From assembly GCF_016903815.1 (NCBI RefSeq), contig NZ_CP069973.1: DNA of 64,000 nt. The stretch is one strand, 5' to 3'. How positions within the stretch are numbered: the stretch's first letter is position 1; each line of letters begins with the position of its first letter. Positions 834 through 63,603 of the stretch are shown here, one piece after another. Below the pieces are notes generated by a model that was given only the letters and a program-made list of their open reading frames with translations, ran no database searches and was not told the origin of the DNA. Made by a program: the position numbers and the translations under genes. The DNA is from Escherichia coli (GTDB taxonomy: Bacteria; Pseudomonadota; Gammaproteobacteria; Enterobacterales; Enterobacteriaceae).

Positions 834-1298
834 TGTTGTATCCTGTTTTTAAGTGATGGCGGCAGTATAGCGGCATGGGGTCAGGGCTTCAAAGTTTGCT
901 CGTCTGCTGCGTTCTGGCATGATTCATCCGTCAACGGAATAATAATGTCTCTATATAGCGAAAGATTGGTCTTTTCATAAGGGCGCAAATACACCACGCC
1001 TTTTCCCTGTTTCTGGTAAATATTATGTTCCGCTCATCAAGCCGACATCCCCATGCCGACGATAAAAACAACGAACAAGCCAACAAACAAACCACATTGC
1101 GATAGTGCATAAAGCCATCCTGGCGCGAGGTGCCGATCACGAAACTACCAGCAAAACATAAATCGCCACGAGTAAGCGTTATACTCGCAGCATTTCCTCA
1201 CTTTTCAGACTTCATAAAGAGTCGCTAAACGCTTGCTTTTACGCCTTCTCCTGCGATGATAGAAAGCAGAAAGCGATGAACTTTACAGGCAATCCATA

Positions 1299-4759: not shown

Positions 4760-6922
4760 ATGGACGTTTCTTACCTGCTCGACAGCCTTAATGACAAACA
4801 GCGCGAAGCGGTGGCCGCGCCACGCAGCAACCTTCTGGTGCTGGCGGGCGCGGGCAGTGGTAAGACGCGCGTACTGGTGCACCGTATCGCCTGGCTGATG
4901 AGCGTGGAAAACTGCTCGCCATATTCGATTATGGCGGTAACGTTTACCAACAAAGCGGCGGCGGAGATGCGTCATCGTATCGGGCAGCTGATGGGCACCA
5001 GCCAGGGCGGCATGTGGGTCGGCACCTTCCACGGGCTGGCGCACCGTCTGCTGCGTGCGCACCATATGGACGCCAATCTGCCGCAGGATTTTCAGATCCT
5101 CGACAGCGAGGACCAGCTACGCCTGCTCAAACGCCTAATCAAGGCGATGAACCTCGACGAGAAGCAGTGGCCGCCGCGCCAGGCAATGTGGTACATCAAC
5201 AGCCAGAAAGATGAAGGCCTGCGTCCACATCATATTCAAAGCTACGGTAATCCGGTGGAGCAGACCTGGCAGAAGGTGTATCAGGCGTATCAGGAAGCGT
5301 GTGACCGCGCGGGCCTGGTGGACTTCGCCGAGCTGCTGCTACGTGCTCACGAGTTGTGGCTTAACAAGCCGCATATCCTTCAGCACTATCGCGAACGGTT
5401 TACCAATATCCTGGTGGACGAATTCCAGGATACCAACAACATTCAGTATGCGTGGATCCGCCTGCTGGCGGGCGATACCGGCAAAGTGATGATCGTTGGC
5501 GATGACGATCAGTCAATCTACGGCTGGCGTGGAGCGCAGGTGGAGAATATTCAGCGTTTCCTCAATGATTTCCCCGGTGCTGAAACTATCCGTCTGGAGC
5601 AGAACTACCGCTCTACCAGCAATATTCTGAGCGCCGCGAACGCCCTGATTGAAAACAACAACGGGCGTTTGGGTAAAAAACTGTGGACCGATGGCGCGGA
5701 TGGTGAGCCTATTTCCCTCTATTGCGCTTTTAACGAACTCGATGAAGCGCGTTTTGTGGTTAACCGTATCAAAACCTGGCAGGACAACGGCGGGGCGCTT
5801 GCCGAGTGCGCCATTCTCTACCGCAGCAACGCCCAGTCGCGTGTGCTGGAAGAAGCACTGTTACAGGCAAGTATGCCGTACCGTATTTACGGCGGGATGC
5901 GATTCTTCGAACGCCAGGAAATCAAAGATGCGCTCTCGTATCTGCGCCTGATTGCCAACCGTAATGACGACGCGGCCTTTGAGCGCGTGGTGAATACACC
6001 AACGCGGGGTATTGGTGACCGGACGCTGGACGTGGTACGTCAGACATCGCGCGATCGCCAGTTAACACTCTGGCAGGCATGTCGTGAACTGTTGCAGGAA
6101 AAAGCCCTCGCCGGACGTGCTGCCAGTGCCTTACAGCGGTTTATGGAACTGATCGACGCCTTAGCGCAGGAAACTGCCGATATGCCGCTGCATGTACAGA
6201 CTGACCGGGTAATTAAAGACTCCGGCCTGCGCACAATGTACGAGCAGGAGAAAGGCGAAAAAGGCCAGACGCGTATCGAAAACTTAGAGGAACTGGTGAC
6301 GGCGACGCGCCAGTTCAGCTACAACGAAGAAGACGAAGATTTAATGCCGCTGCAGGCGTTCCTCTCCCATGCGGCACTGGAAGCGGGCGAGGGGCAGGCG
6401 GATACCTGGCAGGATGCGGTGCAGTTGATGACGCTACACTCGGCGAAAGGTCTGGAGTTCCCGCAGGTGTTTATCGTCGGTATGGAAGAGGGCATGTTCC
6501 CAAGCCAGATGTCGCTGGATGAAGGTGGGCGTCTGGAAGAAGAACGCCGTCTGGCCTACGTTGGCGTAACCCGCGCGATGCAGAAACTGACGCTGACCTA
6601 CGCGGAAACCCGCCGTCTGTATGGCAAAGAAGTTTACCATCGCCCGTCGCGCTTTATCGGCGAGCTGCCGGAAGAGTGTGTGGAAGAGGTGCGCCTGCGC
6701 GCCACGGTAAGCCGCCCGGTCAGCCATCAACGGATGGGTACGCCGATGGTCGAGAACGACAGCGGCTACAAGCTCGGCCAGCGCGTACGCCACGCTAAGT
6801 TTGGTGAAGGCACCATTGTCAATATGGAAGGCAGCGGTGAGCATAGCCGTTTGCAGGTGGCGTTCCAGGGCCAGGGTATTAAATGGCTGGTGGCGGCTTA
6901 TGCCCGGTTGGAGACGGTGTGA
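4760..6922 (+). CDS. uvrD: DNA helicase II (UvrD)
   Basis: 720 aa from ATG at 4760 (MDVSYLLDSLNDKQREAV...); Walker A GAGSGKTRV; the track ORF at 4571 is an upstream in-frame extension. Confidence 0.95.
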   Translation: MDVSYLLDSLNDKQREAVAAPRSNLLVLAGAGSGKTRVLVHRIAWLMSVENCSPYSIMAVTFTNKAAAEMRHRIGQLMGTSQGGMWVGTFHGLAHRLLRAHHMDANLPQDFQILDSEDQLRLLKRLIKAMNLDEKQWPPRQAMWYINSQKDEGLRPHHIQSYGNPVEQTWQKVYQAYQEACDRAGLVDFAELLLRAHELWLNKPHILQHYRERFTNILVDEFQDTNNIQYAWIRLLAGDTGKVMIVGDDDQSIYGWRGAQVENIQRFLNDFPGAETIRLEQNYRSTSNILSAANALIENNNGRLGKKLWTDGADGEPISLYCAFNELDEARFVVNRIKTWQDNGGALAECAILYRSNAQSRVLEEALLQASMPYRIYGGMRFFERQEIKDALSYLRLIANRNDDAAFERVVNTPTRGIGDRTLDVVRQTSRDRQLTLWQACRELLQEKALAGRAASALQRFMELIDALAQETADMPLHVQTDRVIKDSGLRTMYEQEKGEKGQTRIENLEELVTATRQFSYNEEDEDLMPLQAFLSHAALEAGEGQADTWQDAVQLMTLHSAKGLEFPQVFIVGMEEGMFPSQMSLDEGGRLEEERRLAYVGVTRAMQKLTLTYAETRRLYGKEVYHRPSRFIGELPEECVEEVRLRATVSRPVSHQRMGTPMVENDSGYKLGQRVRHAKFGEGTIVNMEGSGEHSRLQVAFQGQGIKWLVAAYARLETV

Positions 6923-6966: not shown

Positions 6967-7869
6967 TTACTTAGCGCACTTCTTCACATCAATATTCCAG
7001 TCAGCACCAGACGCAACCTGATGTTTCTGCGCAAAATTATCCATATTCAGCGCCACGGAAACATTCAATAAGCTGTTCAGATACACCATCGGCTGGCCTT
7101 CCGGCACATCGCCGAAGCTTGCGACATACGGCATTTTCCCTGCGTATTTTTGCTGGGAACCTTCGGAAATGGTCACACACAACGTGTCGTTGAGTTTGAT
7201 TCCTGCCTGATTCAGCAACTCGTCGCTGATATTGCTCCAGACGTTGCCGTACTGAATATCGAGAATCGGGATATTGCCCTTCACTTCACCTTTTGTTGCT
7301 TTTGCTTTCTGATAAGAAAGTTCGACAACTTTTGCAGGAAGCTCTGGCCCCACCTGTTCGAACGTAATCGCTCCGGAAGCCAGACGCGCACCAGTGTAGG
7401 CATATACATCGCGACCATGGAAGGTATATGACTTTTCAGAACCTTTCAGGCGGTTAGCTTTTTCGTCGATTTCCCGGACGCTATCAATACCCAGAGTTTG
7501 TGCCACCAAAGTGAGCGTACCGTTATCTGGTGAAACGAAGTATTGACCGTTTTTGGTTTTCAGCACTACCGATTTACGGTCAGTGCCTACGCCCGGATCG
7601 ACCACGCTAACAAACACCGAACCTTGCGGCCAGTAACTGGCAGTCTGATACAGGCGATAAGCGCCTTCCCAGATGTTATACGGTGGAATTTCGTGTGTTA
7701 AATCAAAGATTTTAAGATTATGGTCAACGCCGAATGCGACCCCTTTCATCGCCGAGACGGCACCATCTTTCAGGCTAAAATCAGTTTGTAAAATCAAAGC
7801 GTTATCCGCATAGGCGGATGATGATCCCAGACACGTTAATAAAAATAACGTTGCGAGCGTTTTTTTCAT
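6967..7869 (-). CDS. secreted SAM hydroxide adenosyltransferase-like protein (DUF62 family)
   Basis: 300 aa; N-terminal signal peptide MKKTLATLFLLTCLGSSSAYA; motifs LQTDFSLKDGAVSAMKGV and FHGRDVYAYTGARLASG resemble the DUF62 fold; family call is from memory of motifs. Confidence 0.6.
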   Translation of the reverse strand: MKKTLATLFLLTCLGSSSAYADNALILQTDFSLKDGAVSAMKGVAFGVDHNLKIFDLTHEIPPYNIWEGAYRLYQTASYWPQGSVFVSVVDPGVGTDRKSVVLKTKNGQYFVSPDNGTLTLVAQTLGIDSVREIDEKANRLKGSEKSYTFHGRDVYAYTGARLASGAITFEQVGPELPAKVVELSYQKAKATKGEVKGNIPILDIQYGNVWSNISDELLNQAGIKLNDTLCVTISEGSQQKYAGKMPYVASFGDVPEGQPMVYLNSLLNVSVALNMDNFAQKHQVASGADWNIDVKKCAK

Positions 7870-9085: not shown

Positions 9086-10036
9086 ATGCTGAGCGCATTT
9101 CAACTGGAAAATAACCGACTGACCCGGCTGGAAGTCGAAGAGTCACAACCCCTTGTAAATGCAGTATGGATTGATCTTGTCGAACCGGACGACGACGAGC
9201 GACTGCGCGTACAATCTGAACTTGGCCAGAGCCTGGCAACCCGCCCGGAACTGGAAGACATCGAAGCATCGGCACGTTTCTTTGAAGACGATGACGGCCT
9301 GCATATTCACTCCTTCTTCTTCTTTGAAGATGCGGAAGATCACGCCGGTAACTCCACTGTGGCATTTACCATCCGTGATGGTCGTCTGTTTACTCTGCGT
9401 GAGCGTGAACTGCCCGCTTTTCGTCTATATCGTATGCGTGCCCGTAGCCAGTCGATGGTAGACGGTAATGCCTACGAGCTGCTGCTGGATCTGTTCGAAA
9501 CCAAAATCGAACAGTTGGCAGATGAAATTGAAAATATCTACAGCGACCTGGAGCAGTTGAGCCGGGTAATTATGGAAGGGCATCAGGGCGATGAGTACGA
9601 CGAGGCGCTCTCCACGCTGGCGGAACTGGAAGATATCGGCTGGAAAGTTCGCCTGTGTCTGATGGATACCCAGCGTGCGCTCAACTTCCTGGTGCGTAAG
9701 GCGCGTTTACCGGGCGGGCAACTAGAGCAGGCGCGTGAAATCCTGCGAGATATCGAATCCCTGCTGCCGCATAACGAATCTCTGTTCCAGAAGGTGAACT
9801 TCCTGATGCAGGCGGCGATGGGCTTTATCAACATCGAGCAGAACCGCATCATCAAAATCTTCTCGGTGGTATCCGTCGTGTTCCTGCCGCCAACACTGGT
9901 TGCTTCCAGCTACGGGATGAACTTTGAGTTTATGCCAGAACTGAAGTGGAGTTTCGGCTACCCAGGCGCGATTATCTTTATGATCCTCGCGGGCCTGGCA
10001 CCGTATCTGTACTTTAAGCGGAAGAACTGGTTGTAA
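9086..10036 (+). CDS. corA: Mg2+/Co2+ transporter CorA
   Basis: 316 aa [17 protein letters not shown]...; signature YGMNF and two C-terminal TM helices. Confidence 0.95.
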
Positions 10037-10041
10037 TATGA

Positions 10042-10068
10042 GTGCCGGATAAAGCTATTTTTTATCCG
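10042..10068. terminator. hairpin terminator downstream of corA (possibly bidirectional)
   Basis: gccggataaagctattttttatccggc inverted repeat with a T-run, directly after the corA stop. Confidence 0.5.
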
Positions 10069-10076
10069 GCTTATTT

Positions 10077-10568
10077 CTAAAAATTGTCTTTTTTAAAGTC
10101 ATGCGGATTGAAAACTCGCTCTATTTTATTTTCTTGTGTTAATTGATACTCAGTAAAATCGTTAATACCAATATGAGTGTTACGATAAGGGTATTCATTA
10201 ATAACCATTAAGTAATTTTTCACGATGCAATTATCATTGCTCTTAATTGTCGGGAAACAGTAGAGATCTTCATACGGCCCTTCGATATATTTTTTATAGT
10301 CAGTGAAGCCATTACCGATATCAATGACATACCAGGTATGCCAACTACCTTCTGGTAGGGGATGTTGATTTTTAATTTCATTCTGATGCTTCAGATACCA
10401 ATTTATTTTATCGCTGTCAGTCCATGGCAGATGATCAACGACCAGAAAGACTGAATTGCCAGCATCAGAGTATGTATACAAAATCTGTACAGGACGCAAT
10501 GTCCATAAATTATAGATGCAGCATAGAAGAAATAAACATAATATAATTTTCTGGAGTTTACTTTTCAT
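10077..10568 (-). CDS. hypothetical exported or membrane-anchored protein; candidate immunity partner of the upstream gene
   Basis: 163 aa; N-terminal hydrophobic segment (KIILCLFLLCCIYNLW); start overlaps the upstream stop (ATGA); very AT-rich; no family recognised. Confidence 0.55.
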   Translation of the reverse strand: MKSKLQKIILCLFLLCCIYNLWTLRPVQILYTYSDAGNSVFLVVDHLPWTDSDKINWYLKHQNEIKNQHPLPEGSWHTWYVIDIGNGFTDYKKYIEGPYEDLYCFPTIKSNDNCIVKNYLMVINEYPYRNTHIGINDFTEYQLTQENKIERVFNPHDFKKDNF

Positions 10569-11413
10569 AGATAATTTTCGATTCTTTCGATAGTGTTAAA
10601 ATTGGTGAAAAAAGGTTTGAAAGCAAAGTCTTTATGCCGTTGTAAAAAGAACCATATGCGAAAAAATCTATATTTGCTGTAAGTCTTGTTTTTTATATCA
10701 GTTACATCCAAACCAAAGTGGTCTTGTGCTATGAAATGAATGGTAGCGCTCCAGCCCATAGGATATTTTTGAAAATTTAAAAGAGAGATTTTTTGAGCTG
10801 AGATATCATGAATGCTGATTCCCAGGCCATTAAAATTATCTTTAAAATCATTGAATTTATTTAGTCTTGATGAAAGTAATTCGATCTTAATCTTTTGTAG
10901 GAGAAGAGGCCGGTATCCTATCGTAGGTGTTGAAGAAATATCATTTTCGATACATTCTTTGATTACACGTATTGGGCTATTATAATCATATTTGTTTATT
11001 CGTTCATGAAAAGATAAGTTCAATTCCTGGCTATGGAAACTGTTGCCATTTCCATATCTAAAATGATCAATCAGATCCTGGATGAGTGTTTTGTATTGTC
11101 CAAAAAAGGAAAACATTTTTGCCAGATCTTTCATTTCTGCAAATAAAATATCAATACATTCACTTTGTGATATTTTTGTTCCGGAAGTTGGAACACTAAA
11201 AGCACCATAAGTAGAATTCGGCCCAGGAAAATGGTATTTAATGAGGCGGTAAGGATCAACTTTTGCAGAGATGTCGCTTAAGCCGAGTGAGAGAAAATCT
11301 TGTTCTTCCATATCCCCATATTGCATATCATCAGCAGAAAAATCATCGAATAAAGTAATAGTTTCGAAAAGTGTACAGGGCATATTAATTGATGAGCCTA
11401 ATATGTTGTTCAT
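10565..11413 (-). CDS. hypothetical 282-aa soluble protein; candidate orphan effector/toxin
   Basis: Long ORF in a strongly AT-rich block between corA and rarD; no signal peptide; translationally coupled to the downstream 163-aa gene; family not recognised. Confidence 0.55.
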   Translation of the reverse strand: MNNILGSSINMPCTLFETITLFDDFSADDMQYGDMEEQDFLSLGLSDISAKVDPYRLIKYHFPGPNSTYGAFSVPTSGTKISQSECIDILFAEMKDLAKMFSFFGQYKTLIQDLIDHFRYGNGNSFHSQELNLSFHERINKYDYNSPIRVIKECIENDISSTPTIGYRPLLLQKIKIELLSSRLNKFNDFKDNFNGLGISIHDISAQKISLLNFQKYPMGWSATIHFIAQDHFGLDVTDIKNKTYSKYRFFRIWFFLQRHKDFAFKPFFTNFNTIERIENYL

Positions 11414-11723
11414 TTATATTCTCCTTTCTTATAATTAAGGGCAATGTTAATTTGATAAGAAATAATAGGGTAAAAAAATTTTAAAAAAGAAATGCACTTC
11501 ACATTTTTCATTACATTCTGAAGAGAACTTGGTTAATGATTGGTCTTGCTCATCGCTAATAACATAATGCTGAATTTACTAAAAATGAAATTTATTAAAG
11601 CAAATGAAAATATACAACGACGTCTGGAAATTCTGCCTTTCCTTATGTGAGTCTCCTGTCAGCATGGCAATATGCCCACTCTCATGCAAGAGTCGGCATA
11701 TTTTTTCAGAATATATTTATTTT

Positions 11724-12614
11724 TTATTTGGACGTTCTACGCTGCGTATAAATCGCATCCATCACAAAAATTGCCAGCGCCACCCAAATAAAGGCGAAGG
11801 TCACCATCTTATCGGCACCCGGTTTTTCACCATAAAACGTCACAGCCAGCAGGAACATCAGCGTCGGGCCAATGTACTGAAAAAAGCCTAACGTTGAGAG
11901 ACGCAGGCGTGTCGCAGCCGCAGTAAAACACAACAGCGGTACGGTAGTGACAATCCCGGCGGCGATCAGCAGTAAATTCAGTGACATCGGGTTTTGCCCC
12001 ATATGGCTAGTTGAGCTGTCGGCAATAGCAAACAGGTAAATCGCCGCCACGGGCAGCAACCACATAGTTTCGATTAACATGCCGGTTTGCGCTTCAACAG
12101 CAATCTTCTTGCGTACCAGGCCGTAGAAGGCAAAACTAAACGCCAGCCCCAGCGCGATAATCGGTAGTGAACCAAAAGTCCACAACTGAACCAACACGCC
12201 ACATATCGCCAGAATCACCGCCAGCCATTGCATCCGGCGGAATCGCTCGCCGAGGAAAATCATCCCTAGCACAATGTTCACCAGCGGGTTAATAAAGTAA
12301 CCAAGGCTCGCTTCCAGCATATGGTGATTGTTCACCGCCCAGATAAACAGTAGCCAGTTGCCACCAATCAGCACGGCAGAGACTGCCAGCATAAAAATTT
12401 TCTGTGGCGTCTGAATCAGCGTTTTTAAATAGGACCACTGGCGGCAGATGCTCATCAGCACCACCATAAAGAAAAACGACCAGATCACGCGATGCGTCAG
12501 GATCTCATCGGCGGGCACGTAGTAAATTAGCTTGAAGTACGCTGGCGCAATACCCCAAATAAAATAAGCGGCAAGAGCGAGTAATACGCCCTGCCGCGTT
12601 TGTTTTGCATCCAT
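11724..12614 (-). CDS. rarD: DMT-superfamily transporter RarD
   Basis: 296 aa, about ten hydrophobic helices; conserved position. Confidence 0.9.
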   Translation of the reverse strand: MDAKQTRQGVLLALAAYFIWGIAPAYFKLIYYVPADEILTHRVIWSFFFMVVLMSICRQWSYLKTLIQTPQKIFMLAVSAVLIGGNWLLFIWAVNNHHMLEASLGYFINPLVNIVLGMIFLGERFRRMQWLAVILAICGVLVQLWTFGSLPIIALGLAFSFAFYGLVRKKIAVEAQTGMLIETMWLLPVAAIYLFAIADSSTSHMGQNPMSLNLLLIAAGIVTTVPLLCFTAAATRLRLSTLGFFQYIGPTLMFLLAVTFYGEKPGADKMVTFAFIWVALAIFVMDAIYTQRRTSK

Positions 12615-23799: not shown

Positions 23800-24060
23800 T
23801 TATTTATTCTCACGTTGCACGAGATTGTATCCCTTTTCACTAACGTGGTAGTGAGGCATAGACTTATTCCCGCTATCCTCAATAATAACCAAACCTTCGT
23901 TAGCTAATTTGTTAACAATGTTAACAACATTCCCGAATCCTGGAATTTGCCTTATGGATAGTGTGCGATCGAGATTCATCCAGTTCCAGTTTATATCTTT
24001 CTCAGTCATAACGTTCAGCACGTTAAGTTCATTTTTAGTGATCACGATATTCTGTACCAA
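23800..24060 (-). CDS. small winged-helix-like protein, paralogue 2; candidate immunity protein
   Basis: 86 aa; roughly 55-60% identical by eye to the neighbouring 85-aa ORF (shared IPGFGNV..NIV.KL...GLV core); AT-rich island. Confidence 0.55.
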   Translation of the reverse strand: MVQNIVITKNELNVLNVMTEKDINWNWMNLDRTLSIRQIPGFGNVVNIVNKLANEGLVIIEDSGNKSMPHYHVSEKGYNLVQRENK

Positions 24061-24119: not shown

Positions 24120-24377
24120 TCAGAAGAGGTTGTCTTGTTGTTCTTTGATAAGATTCAATCCATATTGAGAAACTCTGTAGCGTGGTCTAGAGTTGCCCTC
24201 ACCATTTACGATATCAACCAACCCATGATTAACCAGCTTTGTTACGATATTCGCTACGTTGCCAAATCCTGGAATATTTCGTATAGCTAAAGTACGATCC
24301 AGCACCATCCAGCTCCAGTCAATATCTTTCTCAGCCATAACTTTCAGCACGTTAAATTCAACTATCGTAATCGTCAT
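24120..24377 (-). CDS. small winged-helix-like protein, paralogue 1; candidate cognate immunity protein
   Basis: 85 aa; start overlaps the stop of the Hcp-extension gene (ATGA), implying translational coupling. Confidence 0.55.
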   Translation of the reverse strand: MTITIVEFNVLKVMAEKDIDWSWMVLDRTLAIRNIPGFGNVANIVTKLVNHGLVDIVNGEGNSRPRYRVSQYGLNLIKEQQDNLF

Positions 24378-25507
24378 TTTGTTGCATCCGGATGAAATAA
24401 GTCAGTATCTTTAATTTTAAAGTCTTCTAGAGTTGCAGTATGTACATTATTCCATAATTCATATCCATCTAAACCTTTCGGTTCACCTGTTTCCCATCCT
24501 AAATTACAATAACGCTGATACTCGCGACATTCATGAGTATAGTAGTTCAGATCGTATTTTTCAGGAAGCAATTCTTTATTTGCTATTTTCTTTAGCCTTG
24601 AAATCATTACATCATTAGCTGGATCATGATCAAATCTGGAGATATGCTTTTCAACAATAGCGATACCTTCCCTGTTGATTGTTACGCCATCTATCGTCAG
24701 GTTTTCAATTGGACCACCGGCAAGGTCGGGATTAAATGGTCTTCCTGATACTGCTCCTCTGGCTCCGAAATGCTCAAGTGATTCCAAATCAGGGAATCTC
24801 ATTCTTCCCAGAACAACTCCAGCAACTATTGAAGCACCAGCGATGAGTAACCCTTTGTTATCCATAACTTGATCGTAACCAGCAGGTGCATCTCCTCCCA
24901 ACTTGTTTGCTGTTTCCCTGAATCCTTCGATATTCCCATTGTATATGCCGCCAGCAGCAAGCAGTCTGCCAACCGCTTTACTATTGAGTGTTTTGAGGCC
25001 ATTATCATCTTTAGTTTTTGGCCGTGGTATAAACAGACGGTTGTAGTTATCGGGAAATGCCAAATAACTAAATTCAGTATTAGCAATCAGATGCCTGGAG
25101 AGTATATATTCATAACTGACAGTGATGGTTTCTGTATCCAGATTGTTCTCAGTAAACAGGTGATTGATTGCTGATAAGAGCGCGCCGCGAAGTTGAATGT
25201 TGTAATATTTCTCCCATCGACCAAATCTATTGATCCGATAGAAGTCAAACTCCATGAACAACTGCTCGTTATTGTTAATAGCGTTAATAAGTAACGGGGA
25301 GCTTTTGTCAATCAATTTACAGAAACTAAGGCCATGCAATTGTGACCCTTTGCCTGTATTCGTAATACTATTAGAGAGCGAGAACGCGAAGATTTCATCT
25401 TCATGGCCAATCTGCCAGCGATTACCTATTGATGCGCTCGTTCCACAACGAGAGGAAATACATCCTTGTTGTTCTCCGGTTATGTTCAGGTAAATAATAT
25501 CACTCAT
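24374..25507 (-). CDS. Hcp (T6SS tube protein) fused to a C-terminal extension: candidate 'extended Hcp' toxin
   Basis: 377 aa; N-terminal ~150 aa aligns by eye to Hcp (IYLNITGEQQG ~ IKGESKD; FCKLIDKSSPLL ~ FTKYIDKSTPNL; FYRIN ~ WYKIN); ~220-aa extension with a Gly/Ala-rich hydrophobic stretch and an unassigned C-terminal domain. Confidence 0.75.
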   Translation of the reverse strand: MSDIIYLNITGEQQGCISSRCGTSASIGNRWQIGHEDEIFAFSLSNSITNTGKGSQLHGLSFCKLIDKSSPLLINAINNNEQLFMEFDFYRINRFGRWEKYYNIQLRGALLSAINHLFTENNLDTETITVSYEYILSRHLIANTEFSYLAFPDNYNRLFIPRPKTKDDNGLKTLNSKAVGRLLAAGGIYNGNIEGFRETANKLGGDAPAGYDQVMDNKGLLIAGASIVAGVVLGRMRFPDLESLEHFGARGAVSGRPFNPDLAGGPIENLTIDGVTINREGIAIVEKHISRFDHDPANDVMISRLKKIANKELLPEKYDLNYYTHECREYQRYCNLGWETGEPKGLDGYELWNNVHTATLEDFKIKDTDLFHPDATK

Positions 25508-51018: not shown

Positions 51019-51585
51019 GCATTGGTGCAAAACAAATGCCGGATGCGACGCTGGCTGAACTGCACCCCAAATGTTGGACATAATCTGACATCTGAAGGTG
51101 CAGTTTATGAAACATTCATTTGAAGTAAAAATTGCCGCTGTAAATCATTACCTGGCCGGTCATGCAGGCATCATTTCTACGGCAAAACTCTTTCAACTTT
51201 CTCACACCAGCCTCTCACACTGGATTAATCTTTTTCTTCTTCACGGTCCTCAGGCACTGGATTGCAGACACAAGCGTAGCTATTCTCCTGAAGATAAACT
51301 TTGCGTGGTTCTTTATGCTCTCGGGCATTCTGAGTCTCTACCCCGGGTAGCTGCCCGGTTTAACATTCCCAGCCACAACACGGTTAAAAACTGGATAAAA
51401 GGCTACCGCAAATCTGGTAATGAGGCCTTTATCAGGCGCAGGAAGGAGAAATGCATGACCCGTTCTGATGATACCCATGAAAACGAGGCAAACATGACGC
51501 CGGAAGAGATGAAGAATGAGCTGCGTTATCTTCGCGCAGAAAATGCATATCTGAAAGCCATGCAGGAGCATCTCCTGGAAAAAAA

Positions 51586-52488
<903 letters not shown>

Positions 52489-55702: not shown

Positions 55703-56410
55703 GCACAGAAAACCCCCAGCTAGGCTGGGGGTTCCGGAAAGCTTTCAGCTTTAAGCCAGTTATTAAAACCCCTTTTGATTTGTTAAAACACCTTGCGGTC
55801 TGGCAACTGCAAGTGTCAAACAAGAAATCAAAAGGGGGTCCCAATGGGGAACGAAAAGAGCTTAGCGCACACCCGATGGAACTGTAAATATCACATAGTT
55901 TTTGCGCCAAAATACCGAAGACAGGTGTTCTACAGAGAGAAGCGTAGAGCAATAGGCAGTATTTTGAGAAAGCTGTGTGAGTGGAAAAGTGTACGGATTC
56001 TGGAAGCTGAATGCTGTGCAGATCATATCCATATGCTTGTGGAGATCCCGCCCAAAATGAGCGTATCCGGCTTTATGGGATATCTGAAAGGGAAAAGCAG
56101 TCTGATGCTTTACGAGCAGTTTGGTGATTTGAAATTCAAATACAGGAACAGGGAGTTCTGGTGCAGAGGGTACTACGTCGATACGGTGGGTAAGAACACG
56201 GCGAAGATACAGGATTACATAAAGCACCAGCTTGAAGAGGATAAAATGGGAGAGCAGTTATCGATTCCCTATCCGGGCAGCCCGTTTACGGGCCGTAAGT
56301 AACGAAGTTGGATGCAAATGTCAGATCGTGTGCGCCTGTTAGGGCGCGGCTGGTAAGAGAGCCTTATAGGCGCATTTGAAAAACCTCCGGCTATGCCGGA
56401 GGATATTTAT
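55703..56410 (+). mobile_element. IS200-family (IS200/IS605) insertion sequence; boundaries approximate
   Basis: Y1 transposase gene preceded by a hairpin (aaacccccagctaggctgggggtt, 55709-55732) and a long-range pairing ccccttttgatt / aatcaaaagggggtc that buries the RBS, and followed by a hairpin (cctccggctatgccggagg, 56384-56402); all typical of IS200. Confidence 0.7.
55844..56302 (+). CDS. tnpA: IS200-family Y1 (HUH) transposase TnpA
   Basis: 152 aa from ATG at 55844; HUH motif (DHIHMLVEIPP) and catalytic Tyr region (YIKHQ). Confidence 0.9.
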   Translation: MGNEKSLAHTRWNCKYHIVFAPKYRRQVFYREKRRAIGSILRKLCEWKSVRILEAECCADHIHMLVEIPPKMSVSGFMGYLKGKSSLMLYEQFGDLKFKYRNREFWCRGYYVDTVGKNTAKIQDYIKHQLEEDKMGEQLSIPYPGSPFTGRK

Positions 56411-63358: not shown

Positions 63359-63603
63359 TAGAGCGAGGACGCTAACAGGAACAATGACTCAGGATGAGGG
63401 TCAGGAGCGCCAGGAGGCGAAGACAGAGGATTGTCAGGAAGACAAACGTCCGGAGACGTAATTAAACGGAAATGGAATCAACACGGATTGTTCCGGCTAA
63501 TGGAAAAACAGGGTGTGTTGGCGGCCTGCAAGGATTGTAAGACCCGTTAAGGGTTATGAGTCAGGAAAAAAGGCGACAGAGTAATCTGTCGCCTTTTTTC
63601 TTT
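63359..63603 (+). ncRNA. csrC: CsrC small RNA (CsrA-sequestering)
   Basis: Starts ATAGAGCGAGGACGCTAACAGGAACAATGACTCAGGATGAGGGTCAGGAGCG; many GGA motifs; ends at terminator aaaaaaggcgacagagtaatctgtcgccttttttc; ~245 nt; canonical engB-yihI location. Confidence 0.85.

Follow-up and report, generated by a model that had tools for sequence, protein, structure and literature searches.

Analysis of a 64,000-nucleotide stretch of Escherichia coli DNA (hereinafter, the window; coordinates are window positions unless another record is named) identified an AT-rich island between corA and rarD with two genes that encode members of the DUF3289 and DUF943 protein families. We propose, with an estimated probability of about 0.75, that these genes comprise an orphan antibacterial effector-immunity pair of a type VI secretion system (T6SS). 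A preliminary description, made from the nucleotide sequence, had taken the block for an orphan pair consisting of a periplasm-acting toxin and an exported or anchored immunity protein; this view is borne out by the family assignment of both proteins, by published experiments on their homologs and by the match of each predicted structural model to one chain of a T6SS effector-immunity complex of known structure. The same description missed the delivery route, type VI secretion, a system that is present in the same genome. The system as such is already known: both families are named and annotated in RefSeq, and publications of 2024-2025 cover their toxicity, immunity, delivery by the T6SS and structure. 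The E. coli copy between corA and rarD itself has apparently not been studied, and it is probably the most widespread orphan T6SS toxin-immunity pair of this species (48.5% of complete genomes).

Under the mechanism that we envisage, the effector, a protein of 282 amino acids (aa), would be loaded non-covalently, as cargo, on the spike or tube of the T6SS encoded in the aspV island of strain 7/2 and injected into the periplasm of neighboring Enterobacteria, where it would attack cell wall synthesis or integrity. The chemistry might involve cleavage of the lipid-linked peptidoglycan precursor by a cluster of acidic and histidine residues (D29, D34, H202-D203, D231-H232, D236 and D239). Siblings would be protected by the membrane-anchored DUF943 protein, which would bind and block the incoming toxin in their periplasm; the effector itself has no export signal and should therefore be harmless in the cytoplasm of the producer.

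The DUF3289-DUF943 gene pair and its homologs

The features of the locus are as follows.

10037..11580, no strand: accessory AT-rich block that spans the interval between the corA stop and the yigG remnant junction, with bounds from comparison with K-12-type and other E. coli loci
10044..10070, no strand: terminator-like hairpin, GCCGGATAAAGC...TATCCGGC, between the stop codons of corA and of the 163-aa gene
10077..10568, minus strand: putative immunity gene, DUF943, 163 aa (open reading frame, family match)
10565..11413, minus strand: putative effector gene, 282-aa soluble protein consisting of a single DUF3289 / TIGR03034 (YPO3983 family) toxin domain
11414..11580, minus strand: AT-rich region 5' of the effector gene, about 28-33% GC, part of the island (from composition)
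11421..11426, minus strand: Shine-Dalgarno sequence AAGGAG, 7 nt 5' of the effector ATG, read from the sequence
11581..11631, minus strand: 51-bp internal remnant from the 5' portion of yigG that lacks a start codon, aligned to comparison locus L001 from position 6435, inside yigG (junction 11579/11581)

The corA-rarD slot holds two open reading frames (ORFs) on the minus strand, 10565..11413 (282 aa) and then 10077..10568 (163 aa), as described previously, and the proposed translational coupling is readily seen in the 4-bp ATGA overlap between the stop of the first gene and the start of the second (within CTATGAAAAG). The AT-rich character of the block is equally clear. The GC content is 0.28-0.36 over positions 10000-11650 compared to 0.47-0.57 in corA and rarD; the island (10037-11580) has 32.4% GC against 50.7% for the whole window; and the two genes have a GC content at third codon positions (GC3) of 0.29 and 0.34 compared to 0.62 for corA and rarD. 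At the island composition, the chances of 282 and 163 stop-free codons are 6e-10 and 5e-6, respectively. Because of these low probabilities, the strong family matches and the ratios of nonsynonymous to synonymous substitution rates (dN/dS) of 0.14-0.19, the two ORFs are not chance occurrences. The block is flanked, as noted before, by an AT-rich upstream region (11414-11580), which presumably carries the promoter, and by the hairpin next to corA (10044-10070), which is common to the convergent corA and immunity genes and travels with the island. Comparison of the corA 3' flanks revealed the GCCGGAT...ATCCGGC hairpin in the island-bearing strains and in the Salmonella locus L005, whereas K-12 has GGTGGCTTAG...CTAAGCCACC. 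An Rfam search over 9900-11900 yielded only chance-level matches to small nucleolar RNAs (E about 0.6).

Neither family had been recognized from the sequence, but searches with hidden Markov models place both proteins in named and characterized families, and the RefSeq names of the two genes (DUF3289/YPO3983 family and DUF943) are the same. The 282-aa protein matches TIGR03034 with 394.8 bits (cut-off 156.45) over all profile positions, 1-274 of 274, and Pfam PF11692 (DUF3289) with an E value of 3.1e-82, where residues 10-278 cover profile positions 2-270 of 272. It contains no hydrophobic segment and no signal peptide, in agreement with its initial description as a soluble protein. In an alignment of 57 diverse members of the family, the invariant motif is QDHFGLDxxD, and the window protein retains the conserved D29, G33, D34, H202-D203, D231-H-F-G-L-D236, D239, W254, L257, Q258 and P267; the sole near-invariant position that is changed is P185, here N.

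The 163-aa protein matches Pfam PF06092 (DUF943; E 1.8e-26, profile positions 1-150 of 151) and contains a single hydrophobic segment, at approximately residues 8-24, with K2, K5 and K7 on its N-terminal side. Thus, the N-terminal signal peptide or anchor anticipated in the preliminary description is indeed predicted and, judging from the charge distribution around the membrane helix, the N-terminus is predicted to lie inside. The AlphaFold2 (AF2) model consists of a helix (residues 2-24) followed by a folded domain, and Cys104 and Cys114 are invariant in DUF943; in the model, a helix combined with a folded domain that bears two invariant cysteines is as expected for a periplasm-facing protein.

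Both predicted models match the two chains of the solved T6SS effector-immunity complex between the BtpeA C-terminal domain and BtpiA (PDB 9JDI), in which a DUF3289 domain was crystallized together with its immunity protein, one of the Bacteroides fragilis BtpeA/BtpiA structures (9JDI, 9JG8 and 9JG9). The similarity between the effector and BtpeA is also detectable by profile, with an E value of 1.3e-32. The DUF943 sequence profile did not detect BtpiA at E<=10, and searches of DUF943 against PDB, by single sequence and by profile, gave nothing meaningful; BtpiA was found by fold comparison alone.

The association of the two families extends beyond E. coli. A DUF943 gene is located directly 3' of a DUF3289 gene in every independent locus examined: those of Salmonella (L005-7), of Enterobacter (L008, with two tandem pairs), and L022, L024 and L025. 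The last of these loci (GCA_041200025.1, CP165628.1, 3632-8682) encompasses, amid housekeeping genes, two PAAR-DUF3289 genes, four DUF943 genes and a fragment encoding 62 aa of DUF3289, and has the appearance of a polymorphic-toxin locus in which some of the immunity genes are spare. Among 36 longer DUF3289 homologs, PAAR domains were identified in ten, Hcp/TssD in two and DUF4280 in one, and further proteins of this set contain modules related to peptidoglycan, namely PG_binding_1, Peptidase_M23 or LysM. Fusions of DUF3289 to PIX, PAAR or M23 domains appear in further literature as well, and the link between DUF3289 and DUF943 has been recovered statistically in Klebsiella (PMC12469244).

Two homologous systems have been studied experimentally. 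T6EC1 of Yersinia pseudotuberculosis IP32881, a PAAR-DUF3289 protein, is toxic to E. coli BL21 and causes cell rounding only when targeted to the periplasm, and T6IC1, a DUF943 protein encoded downstream of T6EC1, rescues E. coli from this toxin; in the same work, DUF3289 was proposed as a homolog of colicin M, the similarity being called "striking", with DUF943 as its immunity protein (PMC11148199). In Aeromonas jandaei DSM 7311, the orphan DUF3289 protein WP_042032936.1 was detected in the T6SS-dependent secretome, and self-competition assays identified this protein and the product of the downstream gene as a genuine effector-immunity pair (PMC12135965).

Distribution, alleles and history of the locus

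The pair is present, at no less than 80% of its DNA, in 2633 of the 5426 complete E. coli genomes (48.5%), among them O157:H7, O104:H4 and BL21, so it is not a core component of the corA-rarD junction; yigF-yigG is found in 2408 of these genomes. The K-12-type genomes carry yigF-yigG in this slot, in line with the difference from K-12 noted in the preliminary description. The island and yigF-yigG share the slot and mostly alternate, and this pattern could be taken to mean that the island genes are housekeeping or membrane genes, AT-rich by chance, which functionally replace yigF-yigG and have no role in conflict. Such an explanation appears highly improbable given the presence of the pair in only 48.5% of the genomes and a GC3 of about 0.3 against 0.62 in the flanks; it is contradicted by the family assignment and by the toxicity and rescue shown for homologs, and the genomes that hold both modules show that these are not functional alternatives. 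The 18-20 apparent "plasmid" occurrences of the island in E. coli come from PLSDB records of 1.0 and 4.8 Mb that are mislabelled chromosomes, and plasmid carriage was accordingly rejected.

Several configurations of the locus can be distinguished (I, immunity gene; E, effector gene). Configuration A is corA-I-E-rarD with the 51-bp yigG remnant (the window, B19429, CS6L and others). Configuration B is corA-I-E-[137-bp copy of the corA 3' end]-yigF-yigG-rarD (1368KP, BL21 and IMT16316). Configuration C is the same as B except that a gene for a 99-aa hypothetical protein replaces yigFG (O157:H7, O104:H4 and others). In configuration B, the corA copy is followed by the K-12-type terminator and then yigF, whereas the hairpin that comes after the functional corA is different and Salmonella-like. 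The 137-bp direct copy corresponds to window positions 9900-10036 and to L001 5570-5706, L002 5576-5712 and L018 3720-3866; the second copy is absent in the window. In B19429, a near-identical strain, corA and the immunity gene are separated by a copy of IS200C.

These arrangements suggest a possible history of the locus. Direct repeats bracketing the island could delete it by homologous recombination and thereby regenerate the K-12 arrangement, and the yigG remnant at 11581..11631 implies that configuration A probably derives from an arrangement with both the island and yigFG, through loss of the corA' copy, yigF and the greater part of yigG. The non-enterica subspecies of Salmonella enterica (houtenae/arizonae-type; L005-L007, 8001-9328) carry a 62%-identical DUF3289-DUF943 pair in the same rarD-corA slot, without the corA repeat. 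The slot would then be either ancient or a recurrent target of exchange through the conserved flanking genes.

The effector exists as two alleles with 85% protein identity and a synonymous distance (dS) of 0.39, compared to 0.10-0.16 for corA and rarD; the immunity proteins of the two effector-allele groups share 97.5-100% identity. The divergence begins sharply at approximately 10698, inside the effector gene, and the upstream region 11414..11580 co-varies with the effector allele, with 78-91% identity to the other allele. As judged by these sequence comparisons, the window pair is an inter-allele recombinant: the N-terminal three quarters of the effector and the upstream region (10698-11580) are 98-100% identical to allele A and 81-91% identical to allele B/C, whereas the corA spacer together with the 3' portion of the immunity gene (10000-10300) are 98-100% identical to allele B/C and 81-96% identical to allele A. 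The same immunity protein, WP_000837562.1, is found in the window and in strains with the other effector allele.

Both genes have dN/dS values in the range of 0.14 to 0.19, those for the effector being 0.19 between the alleles and 0.14 in comparison with Salmonella, which indicates that the toxin gene, too, evolves under purifying selection. In strain 03_3469 (L002, NZ_CP074954.1; 4042-4534), the immunity gene is frameshifted by an extra T at the equivalent of window position 10289 and the effector gene is intact, a state that would be tolerable only if the toxin never reaches the periplasm of the cell itself or its siblings. In BL21(RP) (L018, NZ_CP084683.1, 1847566-1848902), both genes are intact, with effector allele B, and yigF and a yigG pseudogene are present as well. 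BL21 was the host in the published T6EC1 toxicity experiments (PMC11148199); therefore, its chromosomal DUF943 protein is either not expressed or not cross-protective.

A bolder extension of the effector-immunity interpretation would hold that DUF3289, far from being a lipid II phosphodiesterase of the colicin M type, is a distinct enzyme class, defined by the Asp/His cluster (D29, D34, H202-D203 and QDHFGLDxxD) rather than by the colicin M motif, that the bare E. coli form is loaded without an adaptor, and that the pair is a main determinant of T6SS compatibility between gut E. coli strains. This combination of claims seems doubtful to us; the major role in compatibility could hold because the pair is present in about half of E. 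coli and combines two effector alleles with almost the same immunity protein.

Type VI secretion context and the weight of the evidence

The window differs from the genome of E. coli 7/2 (NZ_CP023820.1, 4325499-4389498) by 3 mismatches in 64 kb, all in ribosomal RNA (rRNA) genes, and this genome carries a complete T6SS cluster beside tRNA-Asp (aspV), at NZ_CP023820.1 242703-271281 (L011 17704-46282). The cluster encodes TssA, B, C, E, F, G, J, K, DotU and M, a ClpV-like ATPase, two Hcp proteins, VgrG and Rhs. A small ORF is located downstream in this cluster; strain 7/2 was isolated from human faeces in Sweden.

We estimated the association between the island and the aspV-type T6SS by inclusion-exclusion over the 5426 complete genomes, with 2753 genomes positive for the island, 2268 for the aspV-type tssBC and 3409 for either. 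Both are present in 1612 genomes, the island only in 1141, the aspV-type T6SS only in 656 and neither in 2017. Hence the aspV-type T6SS is found in 58.6% of the island-positive compared to 24.5% of the island-negative genomes, an odds ratio of 4.3 that is uncorrected for phylogeny and ignores other T6SS types.

Several observations weigh against the interpretation of the pair as a T6SS effector and its immunity protein. No T6SS gene is adjacent to the pair, its neighbors being corA and rarD, and no PAAR, Hcp, VgrG, MIX, PIX or WHIX-type delivery domain is fused to the effector. The 1141 island-positive genomes (41%) that have no aspV-type T6SS may carry another type. A scan of the minus strand 5' of the effector gene for sigma-70 promoters produced no convincing site, with counts not above those in shuffled sequence, and such AT-rich DNA is frequently subject to silencing. 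Pseudogenes occur as well: a sample of 14 island-bearing genomes showed an intact pair in ten, a broken effector gene in three and a broken immunity gene in one. Finally, secretion, toxicity and binding are attributed to the E. coli proteins by analogy with their homologs.

Some of these observations could also be accommodated by a decaying relic or an immunity island, in which DUF943 is kept against the DUF3289 toxins of competitors, such as Salmonella, Enterobacter, Klebsiella and Yersinia, and the toxin gene drifts to loss. This explanation, which we consider unlikely, would fit the genomes with a broken effector and an intact immunity gene (3 of 14), the near-invariance of the immunity protein (97.5-100%) across alleles whose effectors are only 85% identical, the lack of the aspV-type T6SS in 41% of the island-positive genomes, the intact state of both genes in BL21 and the spare DUF943 genes in other genera (L025). 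It does not easily account for the intact window effector, with all conserved residues but one, for the dN/dS of the effector (0.19 between alleles and 0.14 against Salmonella) or for the complete T6SS in the host, and the sampled genome that lost the immunity gene and kept the toxin gene is the opposite of its prediction.

Equally, the lack of an adjacent T6SS gene and of a fused delivery domain, along with the recurring weak fold likeness of the effector to four members of the colicin M family, would be compatible with a toxin that acts independently of the T6SS, be it a lysis-released bacteriocin taken up in the manner of colicin M or an intracellular toxin-antitoxin or phage defense module. 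We regard this scenario as very unlikely. DUF3289 fills all of the 282 aa, leaving no receptor-binding or translocation domains, and there is no lysis gene; neither protein matched the PADLOC models of anti-phage defense at E<=1; a toxin without a signal peptide combined with an antidote that is predicted to face the periplasm would make no sense as a cytoplasmic toxin-antitoxin pair; and homologs are fused to PAAR and Hcp, with one orphan homolog delivered by the T6SS.

With the T6SS effector-immunity pair as the preferred interpretation, the interest of the E. coli locus lies in its prevalence, in the allele and immunity pattern, in the loading route of a domain-only effector and in the enzymology. 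Apparently undescribed for E. coli are this prevalence, the alternation of the pair with yigF-yigG at a fixed chromosomal site that also serves Salmonella, the existence of two alleles of the effector next to an almost common immunity protein, and the enrichment of the pair in genomes with the aspV-type T6SS. The pair is a convenient model for the loading of domain-only cargo effectors and for the question of whether effector repertoires shape competition among gut E. coli. A practical point is that BL21, the host of the published toxicity tests, has its own intact copy.

Another orphan T6SS module of the window lies 13 kb from the pair, between metE and ysgA. A gene annotated as tssD (24374-25507, minus strand) encodes a 377-aa protein in which the first ~147 residues form an Hcp domain (TIGR03344, 124.9 bits; Pfam T6SS_HCP) and the C-terminal extension of ~230 aa has no family or PDB match; this protein appears to be an Hcp effector of the 'extended toxin' type. 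It is followed by an 85-aa ORF (24120-24377, minus strand), with a 4-bp overlap with the extended hcp gene, and an 81-aa ORF (23800-24045, minus strand), which have no family match and are candidate immunity genes of the extended Hcp.

Further features lie elsewhere in the window. A gene for a 300-aa protein of the S-adenosylmethionine (SAM) hydrolase / halogenase family (6967-7869, minus strand) is located between uvrD and yigE, with the (R)-SAM hydrolase and fluorinase models below the cut-off; the gene is absent from the uvrD-yigE junction in L001 and L002, the loci with this junction in view, and is therefore another accessory insertion. A copy of the IS3-family element IS1397 lies downstream of the rrn operon (~51107-52455), and an IS200C transposase gene lies between dsbA and yihF (~55844-56302). 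Annotated pseudogenes include a DKNYY-family fragment beside cyaY (956-1110, minus strand) and a frameshifted hypothetical ORF upstream of yihI (~63384-63550, plus strand).

Comparison with known systems

The relationship to colicin M merits separate consideration. The members of the colicin M family are lipid II phosphodiesterases with the catalytic signature DxYDx5HR, and the immunity protein of colicin M, Cmi, faces the periplasm and has an N-terminal helix as its anchor in the inner membrane. Colicin M and Cmi resemble DUF3289 and DUF943 in the periplasmic site of action and, as predicted for DUF943, in a membrane-anchored, periplasm-facing immunity protein. The effector also shows weak fold similarity to PaeM, colicin M, syringacin M and pectocin M1, which recurs across all four proteins. 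None of the 57 DUF3289 sequences contains a relaxed version of the colicin M signature, D.[YFW]D.{4,6}H[RK], and colicin M-type bacteriocins carry N-terminal translocation and receptor-binding domains, unlike the window effector, in which DUF3289 spans residues 10-278 of 282. Homology to colicin M was considered seriously because of the published "striking" similarity (PMC11148199); with the fold likeness weak, sequence support lacking and the catalytic motif absent, we did not assign the protein to the colicin M family and kept the more general notion that the protein acts on the cell wall in the periplasm. Cleavage of lipid II in the manner of colicin M, the least certain step of the proposed mechanism, was neither confirmed nor excluded by the tests that were run.

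The BtpeA/BtpiA complex, the structure of which was reportedly described by Li W. et al. in 2025 (Cell Host Microbe 33:1901), contains the closest homolog of solved structure, with only 20% identity to the window pair for the effector and 10% for the immunity protein. BtpeA differs from the window effector in its length of 608 aa, in a PAAR-type region at the N-terminus and in its dependence on an adaptor. The host of BtpeA belongs to a different phylum than E. coli and has a different T6SS subtype.

T6EC1 and T6IC1 share with the window pair both Pfam families, the gene order and the predicted topology of the immunity protein (a transmembrane (TM) helix at ~7-26 and a periplasmic remainder). 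However, T6EC1 is fused to PAAR and encoded inside a T6SS operon, in contrast to the window effector, which is a bare toxin domain encoded amid housekeeping genes, 4 Mb from the T6SS cluster.

The A. jandaei DUF3289 protein resembles the window effector in being encoded away from the T6SS clusters. Its immunity protein, unlike that of the window, does not belong to DUF943; it comprises 95 aa and has a signal peptide along with three TM helices. The A. jandaei case is the best precedent for the delivery of an orphan DUF3289 protein by the T6SS.

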